Positions 60,347 through 64,000 of a stretch of 64,000 bases of DNA are shown in pieces. A model generated the notes under the pieces. It worked only from the letters and a program-made list of their open reading frames with translations, had not been told where the DNA came from and did not search any database. Position numbers and translations under genes: made by a program. Within the stretch, counting starts at the first letter, position 1. Every line of letters begins with the position of its first letter. Source of the stretch: a virus; the IMG/VR virus record IMGVR_UViG_3300009408_000002, positions 12,916 to 76,915 of that record; one strand, written 5' to 3'.

Positions 60347-60419
60347 TCGGCCCCCTGGGAATCGAACCCAGCTATTACCGCTTATGAGGCGGCTGCTATC
60401 ACCAGATTGCTAGAGGCCG
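60347..60419 (-). tRNA. tRNA with CAT anticodon (probably tRNA-Ile2 rather than Met); CCA not encoded
   Basis: Cloverleaf: CGGCCTC/GGGGCCG-A acceptor, GCCGC-CTCATAA-GCGGT anticodon arm, CTGGG-TTCGATT-CCCAG T arm. Confidence 0.9.
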
Positions 60420-60920: not shown

Positions 60921-61384
60921 CGCCATTGCTCAAGCCTTACTGCCAGGTTGCCATATTAGGTATGACCGCCGTACTAGGTGAGTTTCGGATCACCGTTCCA
61001 GCCAGCTTACTACTACCACCGGCCCAGCCGGCAGCCAGCCGCCTCAGCGCAACCGTCGTGCCGAACCCGGCAGATTCTTTTCAAGTCCAGCGCCAGCCTC
61101 GACTTGCGGAAGATCGGCCAGTCCGGCATGCCGCTTGCTAGGTGCAGCAGGAATGCTGCGATTTACCGGTTTTGGCGCAGAATTTCCGCTGCACCCCGGT
61201 AATCGACCGCCCGCTGGCGCGCGAAGCTGCGCTGGCTTGACTGCAACCACAATCTGCATATATGGTGTAAGTTATTGACACATTGACGCAGATCCCCGCC
61301 CCCCTCCTCCAGAATAATGCCATATACAGAGAAATATATTTCAGCCCAACCGAAGTAGTTAGTAGTTGCCTCGCGCAGCGAAAT

Positions 61385-61608
61385 CCCCCGCCCCATCCAC
61401 GCCCTAAGTTGGCTTTATATAGGAATCTAGCTAAAATGGCCTGATTACGCAGTTGCAGTCAAGCCTGACGCCAGTCATAGCGAACGCCGCCCCACCCCCC
61501 GCCCCTAATTCGTTCTATATAGGAATTTTCATAACGAGCCGTGATTTTTGTAGTCAAGCCTGACGCCAGTCATGCCAAACGCCGCCCCCCCCCCGCCCCC
61601 CCGCCCCT
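61385..61608. repeat. Imperfect ~95-100 bp tandem repeat with exact 22-bp core
   Basis: AGTCAAGCCTGACGCCAGTCAT at 61457-61478 and 61552-61573; TATATAGGAAT twice; C-rich tracts. Confidence 0.85.
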
Positions 61609-61703
61609 GTATCGGTTTTCTTAACGCGACGCATATATGTGCATATACGCGCGCGCGCGTGAAAACAGGCGCGAATGGACGCCAGGTATGAGCATGCGCA
61701 AAA

Positions 61704-61778
61704 GCTGGCGCCCACTTCGCGCGCCCGCATTGCTGGCGCCCACTTCGCGCACGCGCATTGCTGGCGCCCACTTCGCGC
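61704..61778. repeat. Three direct repeats, 28-bp period
   Basis: GCTGGCGCCCACTTCGCGC at 61704, 61732, 61760. Confidence 0.9.
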
Positions 61779-61847
61779 ACGCGACAACGGGCGCGCGAAA
61801 CCTGATAGCGCGCGGAAGCAAACGGCATGCCAGGTTCCGGAATGGGC

Positions 61848-61881
61848 AAAAAAAAAGCGTACACTCGGGAGTGTACGCTTT
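61848..61881 (-). terminator. Intrinsic terminator
   Basis: Stem GCGTACACT/AGTGTACGC followed by T9 on - strand just after the stop at 61894. Confidence 0.85.
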
Positions 61882-61893
61882 CGGTAAGGGCGG

Positions 61894-62292
61894 TTACTTG
61901 CTGTTGCTGGTCTTCGCCTTACGGGCCTTGCCCTTGCCTTCCTTTTCCTGCCGACGGCGGCGGCGGTACAGTTCCGCGAGAATGGGGTCTTCGGTGGCGG
62001 CCTTGCCCTTGCCCTTGCCCTTGCCCTTGGCTTCAGCGGCGGCGGGATTCGGAAGGAACACCTTGAGTTTCCATCCGGAGCCCTTAACAACCACCTTACC
62101 ATCGGCTTCCAGTTCCCTTACCATTTCTTCAGCCTGGGAGCGCCGTTCGGCAACACTTTCCGCAACCAGGAAACCGCACAATTTGTTGAGAAAGCAACCC
62201 TTCCACGGGCTTTTGACCTCGCCGGCAAGGTATGCGGCATTCGACATGCTCTCGCAAATCCCGATGTACTCCACTACCAAATCGAACAACAT
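61894..62292 (-). CDS. Small protein with Lys/Arg-rich tail (GK repeats)
   Basis: SD AGGAG before ATG 62292; (CCCTTG)n encoding GKGKGKGK; followed by terminator. Confidence 0.65.
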   Translation of the reverse strand: MLFDLVVEYIGICESMSNAAYLAGEVKSPWKGCFLNKLCGFLVAESVAERRSQAEEMVRELEADGKVVVKGSGWKLKVFLPNPAAAEAKGKGKGKGKAATEDPILAELYRRRRRQEKEGKGKARKAKTSNSK

Positions 62293-62893
62293 AGCGCTAT
62301 CTCCTATGTCACCTAAGATTGATAGATTGCACACAACGCACGGCGACAATGCGCTTTTGTGCACTTGGTACGGTTGATTCAATTGTCAAAAAACGGGGGT
62401 TTATGTTACTGCTAGAAGGTTTTGCCCTACTAGCAGTTATGGTGCTCACTCCCAGGAATTCGGCATGGGGATCCCCATCCGGGCGCTCACCGGATTGCGG
62501 TATAGCTGTCCCAGCACTGCCGCCTCGACGGCGCGCTTAGACCTCAGGACCCGGACCATTCCGCAATGGACGCCCATTTCATCATGGGCGGAAAGGATCA
62601 GTGTTGATGGCATTTCGGGTACAGAAATGATCCGCTCCAGCCTGTAAATCTTCATTCTTCTCCTCCAAGCGATTGTGAAAGATCCGTCACACACGTTCCC
62701 TGCTGCCACCGGCGGGTAGTCAACCCGCCGATAGCGCTTAATTCTTGCTAGCGCCAATACTTCCTCACGAGCATTTTCTGCCTCTCGCGGATGCGCCTAG
62801 CTAGCATCGGATTGCCGGATTCCTGTTGCCAAACCAGCCTACGCCATGACAGGGTTAGCGCCGATAGCGCTTTCTCTATCCGCTGTTGCTTGT

Positions 62894-63112
62894 TCATCTT
62901 GCTTGCCATTCGCCGGTCGAGAGATATCTCTCGTAGGCATCGTCATCGCCAAGGCTGATCAGTGCGCAGGCAATAAAGCCGAATAGCGACGATTGGTACG
63001 CGCAGTGTTCCGGGAAATCATTCACGTATTCGCTGTACTCTCCCGTGGCGTCTGCCGCATTCGCGGCTTCCAGAATCCTTCTCAGCTGTTGAATCGCTTC
63101 CTTCTTTCTCAT
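62894..63112 (-). CDS. Hypothetical early protein
   Basis: First - strand ORF after the non-coding end. Confidence 0.55.
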   Translation of the reverse strand: MRKKEAIQQLRRILEAANAADATGEYSEYVNDFPEHCAYQSSLFGFIACALISLGDDDAYERYLSTGEWQAR

Positions 63113-64000
63113 CGGTTCCCCTAGTTGTAAAAGAGTTTTTCTGACCGGGCCTTTCCCGGTCCCTTCCCTTCGATGCTACTGGCAAGCCCTACTGCATGCC
63201 ATGTGCCAAGCCCGGAAAATTCCGGTCAGATTCAGCAGGTACCAGCAACATAAACCCTCGACCGGCAAGAGCTTACGTAAAAATCATGAAATCCTGTATT
63301 CCAATTTCTGTATGGTCAAAGTAAGGATAATAACAATGAAAGGTCTAGCGTGAGTGTTCACGTTCGTGGACACTCAGTGTCCTAGTTCGGGGAATGGCGA
63401 TATAAACCATTGCTAGCACTAGACTTATGGGCATGCCTTGTGTCCACAAAAGCGGACACGTCTATCCAATTGACATAAACCCTTGCTACACATATACTTG
63501 CATCTTAGATATGAGAATCCCATTGTTAGGCATTGCGCGTTGCAAACGGTGTGCCAGCCAGGCCAGTCTCGGCATGAAATTCAGAAGAAAAACTAACATA
63601 TCTTTCATTGCACATAACGCACAGAATACGTTAGTTGCTATGTGGCGTATTCTGAAATATCTTTCTGGCATGGCGTTTGCTTGCGGCAAATCCTGGCAAG
63701 CCGTTTGCAGGAGGTAACGAAATGTTACTATGCGAAATGACGCAATATGACACATTGCGTTATCAATCGGATGTGACGCAATGTGTCACCTTGCAAGCGG
63801 CATGCCAAACCCTGGATGCTGAAAGATCTTTCAGCATCTTTTTTTGTAAGGCATGCTGTAAGGCGATCAGCAAATCCTGGCAAGGATATGTAAGGAAAGA
63901 CCTAATCGACGCAACACGTTGTCTGGTAAGGGTTTACATCAAATCATAGTTCCATGGTTTCATTCAAGGGTAAGAGTGATTTAAGGTATGAGGTAAGGGG

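Follow-up and report, generated by a model that had tools for sequence, protein, structure and literature searches.

Seven 16-nucleotide (nt) sites of the bacterial sigma-54 promoter type lie within 2.7 kb of one another close to one end of a contig from an uncultured, hydrothermal-vent phage (IMG/VR record IMGVR_UViG_3300009408_000002; 76,915 bp, class linear, completeness estimate 58%). The window analysed here is a stretch of 64,000 nt comprising bases 12916-76915 of that contig; positions below are window positions unless a locus is named, and a sign after a position gives the strand. The cluster is real and far beyond chance. As we read them, with a probability of roughly 0.55, the sites are host sigma-54 promoters that would gate the early and regulatory transcription of the phage and would be fired by a host activator.

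The seven 16-mers were first noticed in a reading of the letters and open reading frames (ORFs) without database searches (the sequence-only reading), and all of them are found at the positions and on the strands, in both orientations, that were claimed for them. In each, the GG and GC doublets are exactly 10 nt apart (GG-N10-GC) within the frame TGGCAC-N5-TTGCW, with five exact sites and two that have one mismatch. The exact matches to TGGCANNNNNNTTGCW are 61817-, 63541-, 63666+, 63694+ and 63792-; of the others, 61124+ has a C in place of the T at position 1, and 63193- an A in place of the T at position 12. These five are also the only perfect matches to TGGCA-N6-TTGCW in the whole contig, all lying between 61817 and 63807, and a simple sigma-54 weight matrix, scanned for enrichment, has its six highest scores in that same interval. 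Dinucleotide shuffles give a mean of 0.38 for TGGCANNNNNNTTGCW per 64 kb, with none of 100 shuffles reaching five, and six of the seven window matches to the narrower motif GGCAYGSCGYTTGC are in the site region, against 0.18 expected. The suspicion that shuffled sequence, or the contig elsewhere, might be just as rich in such motifs is thereby laid to rest.

The unit that recurs is the 16-mer alone. Only 61124+ and 63792- are alike beyond it, in 19 of 20 nt, including an AGGTG at the 3' side that extends five bases past the box; the other sites have unrelated flanks. Immediately 5' of TGG every one of the seven sites has C or T, and the extended sigma-54 consensus attributed to Barrios and colleagues in 1999 reportedly has a pyrimidine there. 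Enrichment, the spacing of the doublets and the pyrimidine before TGG argue well for the sigma-54 reading of the motif. Six of the seven sites are oriented with the local or expected direction of the genes. A co-oriented position upstream of a transcription unit is clear for 63193-, 61817- and the pair 63666+/63694+, while 63541- and 63792- are distant from theirs and 61124+ is counter-oriented.

Transcription units around the sites

Over the contig's first 54 kb the genes point rightward; those from about 63112 down to 41564 point leftward. Along the minus strand, beginning at the right end, one meets in turn: 63792-, 63541-, two GTGTCC/GGACAC dyads, 63193- with its TCTGACCGG boxes, four small ORFs, a terminator (61882-61853), site 61817-, 28-nt repeats, G-run units of about 100 nt, 61124+ with a hairpin, and then, beyond some 700 nt that are free of genes, tRNA-Met and the replication genes. 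Starts of transcription were predicted by canonical sigma-54 geometry, some 12 nt past the GC doublet of each site.

The near-perfect site 63193- (63193..63208, 15.0 bits, predicted start ~63182) is placed as a promoter should be: the ATG at 63112, which has a ribosome-binding site, is 81 nt downstream and opens a leftward early operon of four small ORFs (61894..63112, -). Two further perfect sites face the same way from farther off, 63541- (63541..63556, predicted start ~63530), with 430 nt between it and the first early ORF, and 63792- (63792..63807, predicted start ~63781). All three would feed the operon. Candidate regulator or enhancer sites are the two dyads (63366-63384 and 63440-63459), which lie 185-275 nt upstream of 63193-. 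Two TCTGACCGG hairpin boxes bracket 63193-, at about -48 to -29 (63211-63230) and +21 to +41 (63140-63161), in a layout like that of a looping repressor.

The operon is closed by a strong intrinsic terminator with a 13-bp stem and nine Ts (61853..61882, -), and the perfect site 61817- (61817..61832, predicted start ~61806) follows 15 nt past its T run. This site would restart leftward transcription beyond the terminator and carry it through the repeat block into the tRNA and replication genes; the first recognisable minus-strand gene downstream of it is tRNA-Met (60347..60419, -; ARAGORN, and 46 bits for the Rfam tRNA family, the sole family in an Rfam scan whose remaining matches were far under threshold). 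That most sites lack an adjacent gene, as the sequence-only reading had it, holds in part: start codons lie 81 nt from 63193- and 13 nt from 63694+, and 61817- comes directly after its terminator.

On the other strand, the perfect sites 63666+ and 63694+ form a tandem pair (63666-63681 and 63694-63709; predicted starts ~63692 and ~63720). The second of them abuts a GGAGG, which is followed by an ATG at 63722. The ORF from this ATG crosses a terminator and is Cys-rich, and for that reason the unit is read as a candidate small RNA of about 125 nt (63720..63845, +), with a hairpin at 63742-63794 and an intrinsic terminator at 63814-63845. The fold of this stretch has a z score of -5.2, none of 200 shuffles being as stable, and it belongs to no Rfam family. 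Site 63792- stands face to face with 63694+, with 83 nt between them, and any transcript begun at 63792- would, over its first ~60 nt, be complementary to the candidate RNA. The pair 63666+/63694+ would thus make a short structured RNA antisense to the leftward leader, and the arrangement is suggestive of a switch that has leftward early transcription on one side and rightward regulatory RNA on the other. A sigma-70-like promoter (63470..63498, +; TTGACA-17-TATACT, 11 of 12 positions) reads through the plus-strand sigma-54 sites.

The weaker site 61124+ (61124..61139, CGGCA...TTGCT, 13.3 bits) is directly followed by a hairpin with 20-nt arms at 61141-61195 (identified as an inverted repeat and by RNA folding). 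Between it and the convergent site 61817- is a gene-free repeat block (61280..61790) of four units of ~95-110 nt, each containing long runs of C (of G on the minus strand) as well as a TATATAG-like box, together with three 28-nt tandem repeats at 61704-61787. The block could be an origin activated by transcription (R-loop or G-quadruplex type) or else consist of iterons.

The proteins of the early operon have 72 (62894-63112), 53 (62748-62909), ~69 (62446-62655) and ~132 (61894-62292) residues, the last with a tail rich in Lys, Gly and Arg that includes the runs KGKGKGKG and RRRRR. None has a family: searches of the small early ORFs against PHROG and Pfam gave no match, and their matches in a structure atlas all score below 0.8 and provide winged-helix leads only. 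These leads, all weak, are DsrD-, Mnd1- and SAMD1-like for the 132-residue protein, which may be a DNA-binding early regulator.

The region is present in one hydrothermal-vent run and in two microbial-mat runs of another study, and the mat strains have diverged at many positions. Only one of 40 variable positions listed (too few for a test of selection) is inside a site, at the spacer base 63198, and the variant contigs carry further sigma-54-type boxes to the left of 63649. The strain data speak weakly for maintenance of the sites. One mat strain has 316 nt with one small early ORF (62436-62753) swapped for 336 unrelated letters, a mosaic exchange. In the one metatranscriptome that was examined, the region had no read cover.

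The sequence-only reading placed the sites at the genome end. What is there is the end of an IMG/VR contig, for which the linear class and the completeness estimate have already been given, and a physical terminus is unproven. An independent assembly of the sequencing run that is the probable source ends exactly at base 64000 and two more break within ~30 nt, which favours a real end or a repeat boundary. The last 155 nt contain five copies of GTAAGG (63846..63998, +; the whole 77 kb has 15 plus-strand copies), possibly a terminal or iteron repeat, and the context of the -24 half-site recurs there as GCAAATCCTGGCAAG at 63871. The left end of the contig (L031, 1-623) has a sigma-70-like promoter, TTGACA-16-TACCAT, reading inward, with a gene at base 99. 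(Only ~8 nt separate that promoter from the start codon, ATG, of an ERCC4-type nuclease gene; L031 also has a RusA resolvase gene, at 6453-7181.) If the two ends of the contig join, the sites would be part of an ordinary divergent control region. The idea that the sites let proteins shield the first-injected DNA finds no support, since the contig end is not established as a genome end and since similar arrays, taken up below, are tens of kb from the ends in long viral contigs, and also lie between divergent operons.

The phage has no close relatives. No DNA match was found in cultured phages, and no relative among viral contigs scanned with protein patterns; the top homologues of its AAA ATPase are less than 50% identical, and the word that spans its terminator was not found in metagenome contigs. 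The best metagenome relative (L176) has only two genes in common with it and is without a site cluster. Since an integrase and an HTH_3 repressor were searched for and neither was found, a lysogeny switch cannot be argued for.

Similar arrays in other viral contigs

A strict double-site pattern and a general tandem pattern were each run against a reversed control pattern. The strict pattern is found in 25 viral contigs and its reversed control in none; the general pattern matches at least 120, its reversed control 3. The strict pattern occurs in 10 places only in 596 Gb of prokaryote genomes, mostly on short contigs of metagenome-assembled genomes (MAGs), and several of these are plain hairpin repeats (GCAAGC-N-GCTTGC), not promoters. 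The statistics of the viral loci are those of the 119 (1 Mb) among the matches listed, with a cut-off of at least 14 bits for a site: they hold 634 such sites, up to 11 of them in 400 nt. Distances between neighbours peak at 25-29 nt for sites on the same strand, 22-26 nt for sites back to back and 18-21 nt for sites face to face; the starts of 63666+ and 63694+, 28 nt apart, are within the modal same-strand class. At positions that the search left free, the base just before TGG is T or C in 84% of the sites, and the base after TGGCAYG is a purine in 80%. The spacer of the array sites differs between lineages.

None of the 119 listed loci is related to the vent phage; none of the array contigs that were compared shares a flanking protein with it, and most share none with one another. 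Since these phages are unrelated, have no neighbouring protein in common and reproduce the flank preferences of sigma-54, that conserved cellular protein is the economical explanation of who reads the sites. On such sequence grounds, the reader is probably a conserved host protein. The vent phage resembles the array carriers in having at least two consensus sites within ~35 nt, in a gene-poor gap, and no canonical activator. A literature search found no paper that treats clustered or arrayed sigma-54 sites in phages. The vent phage is a loose example of a feature that recurs among phages and seems not to have been described.

Some arrays are much more compact, with 6-12 sites in 150-200 bp (L007, L019 and L020). 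A complete 39-kb genome (G001), which has no activator, carries its array between operons on the portal side and on the side of a DnaA helix-turn-helix gene. In that array (L019; L041 11506-11700) ten sites alternate in orientation with a period of ~39 nt over 200 bp, and two more follow 260-330 nt on. About 20 related contigs of ~62% GC (L006, L008-L018, L021-L025, L027-L030) have two sites in tandem, their starts separated by 24 nt, ahead of a conserved GC-rich element of ~60 nt; one contig of this group is binned in an Acetobacteraceae MAG (L050). This pair and its element may constitute a conserved sigma-54-driven RNA.

It is rather unlikely, though conceivable, that phages of many unrelated lineages, the vent phage among them, carry sigma-54 sites as a device of their own, either as a sponge or dock that reprograms host regulons or as promoters fired by a phage activator that is not of the AAA+ type. 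If the former were true, sigma-54 regulons of the host, such as those for motility, stress and RNA repair, would be reprogrammed by capture of the scarce sigma-54 polymerase; if the latter, the requirement for an enhancer-binding protein would be bypassed.

The reader of the motif and rival explanations

Initiation with sigma-54, alone among bacterial initiation pathways, is fully silent until an ATPase fires the stable closed complex. The absence of an enhancer-binding ATPase, noted at first for the window, holds for the whole contig in a search with PF00158; a GAFTGA-like loop, a sigma-54 DNA-binding domain and sigma-70 region 2 are likewise not found in the contig. A search of the contig for a T7-type RNA polymerase also gave no match, a weak negative, since the control matched nowhere either. 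With no match to sigma-54, an activator, sigma-70 region 2 or a phage RNA polymerase in its contig, the phage must use the host polymerase. The sequence of events that we propose is then the following. Host sigma-54 holoenzyme would bind the seven motifs, most of which would act as enhancer-dependent promoters of an early control region; the complexes would be opened by a host enhancer-binding ATPase, or by a phage factor that has escaped recognition; and early expression would thereby be coupled to a physiological signal of the host. Of the three roles that the sequence-only reading proposed, host-gated early transcription fits the anatomy best (the terminator-promoter junction, the promoter-small RNA-terminator unit and the orientation of the sites), its function being as yet unproven.

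Several observations weigh against host-gated promoters. The contig has no PF00158 activator of the kind that a sigma-54 promoter calls for, and neither has any of the 49 other viral records with arrays that were searched, 23 of which are at least 90% complete. No enhancer element common to the sites was recognised. Three of five MAGs with such arrays encode sigma-54; the other two, from phyla that usually lack it, do not (their array contigs, of 2.6 and 6 kb, are doubtfully binned). In the 119 listed loci 191 sites are co-oriented with the next gene and 92 counter-oriented, about one-third of the intergenic sites pointing away, in a crude test of little weight in which the ORF caller had placed half of all sites inside 'genes'. 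In the window itself 61124+ runs counter to the local direction of the genes, 63541- and 63792- are 430-680 nt from the first ORF, and the start predicted for 63694+ excludes the GGAGG box from its transcript.

The want of an activator, here and in the 49 records, would suit sites that bind sigma-54 or its holoenzyme and do not fire. Such silent docks, which we consider rather unlikely, might serve as a sponge that, with the multiplication of the phage DNA, depletes the limited supply of sigma-54 and shuts down the sigma-54 regulons of the host, as a roadblock or insulator for sigma-70 transcription (from the 63470 promoter, for example), or as a landing pad at which polymerase is concentrated. 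The spacing of sites in other phages, at 25-29 nt or alternating 18-26 nt apart, looks too tight for their simultaneous use as promoters; several sites in the window have no nearby ORF, 61124+ points the 'wrong' way, and the sigma-70-like promoter reads straight through the plus-strand pair. On the other hand, the sites here are spread across the 2.7 kb and not packed, six of the seven follow the direction of the genes, and seven sites per genome make a modest sponge. Placement also speaks against silent docks: one site comes after a terminator, another before a gene with its ribosome-binding site, and a pair before an RNA and its terminator. A sponge does not need this. Real promoters are favoured because they do, and a mere binding array does not.

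Quite improbable, in our estimate, is that the 16-mer is the operator of a phage DNA-binding protein, or is read by a phage-modified polymerase, and merely resembles a sigma-54 box. Its spacer in the window (GCCGT, GGCGT, ACCGT) is more uniform than sigma-54 needs, and four sites contain the palindrome GGCATGCC; other repeated boxes in the region must have their readers, and the 132-residue early protein, with its weak winged-helix leads, comes to mind. Three sites lack the palindrome, however, whereas all seven retain the -24 and -12 elements; neither a phage polymerase nor a sigma factor was found; and many phages without a neighbouring protein in common have the same bipartite core around other spacers, its unconstrained flanks fitting the preferences of sigma-54. 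That the cluster is a functionless product of chance or of local duplication has a next to negligible probability. The 19 of 20 nt shared by 61124+ and 63792- imply at least one duplication, but the flanks of the other sites are unrelated, no shuffle reaches five matches, the sites are kept in diverged strains of another habitat, and they recur in unrelated phages against a near-empty control.

Comparison with known systems

Sigma-54 sites have been mapped genome-wide in Salmonella and E. coli (PMC3844500, PMC4591121). Bacterial enhancer-dependent RpoN promoters (such as glnAp2, pspA and nifH) and the phage sites have in common the frame TGGCAC-N5-TTGCW, GG and GC doublets 10 nt apart, a pyrimidine before TGG and, in the case of 63193-, 61817- and the tandem pair, a location upstream of transcription units. 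They differ in that the phage provides neither sigma-54 nor an activator, that no enhancer element is recognised in its region, and that it has seven sites in both orientations in 2.7 kb, where a bacterium has tens in several Mb.

To our knowledge, phages are not regular users of sigma-54. The nearest published case is Pseudomonas phage YuA, reported to have sigma-54-type promoters that are active in a promoter trap and one mapped start (Ceyssens et al. 2008, cited in PMC10914365). YuA would share with the vent phage the host polymerase, -24/-12 promoters and, in that account, the lack of an encoded activator. The YuA record (NC_010116) has three annotated '-24/-12' promoters, which are single, on one strand and in the late structural region, and none of them is a strong consensus match in a sigma-54 scan; the sites described here are perfect, clustered, bidirectional and in an early control region, and the vent phage is in this sense not of the YuA type.

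The early promoters A1, A2 and A3 of T7 depend on sigma-70, fire unaided and are arranged in tandem at the leading end of the genome. The likeness to the vent phage would consist in several strong promoters for host polymerase in the first kb that read inward into small early genes, provided that the contig end is a terminus, which is unproven; the sites of the vent phage, unlike those of T7, are of the sigma-54 type.

If the early region does run on sigma-54 without a phage activator, in a design that recurs in more than 100 unrelated viral contigs, then either phages widely couple infection to host signals by way of host activators or the closed complex is put to a use other than initiation; either answer, if true, would reveal a further level of transcription control between phage and host, and synthetic biology would gain compact and naturally orthogonal promoter arrays. 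Close counterparts are the arrays of the other uncultured phages, which are likewise found in gene-poor control gaps, with several consensus sites, a modal spacing of 25-29 nt and no activator. Unlike the tighter of these arrays, the window has one close pair and five scattered sites; with separate sites, clear predicted starts and a candidate antisense RNA, it provides a tractable case.

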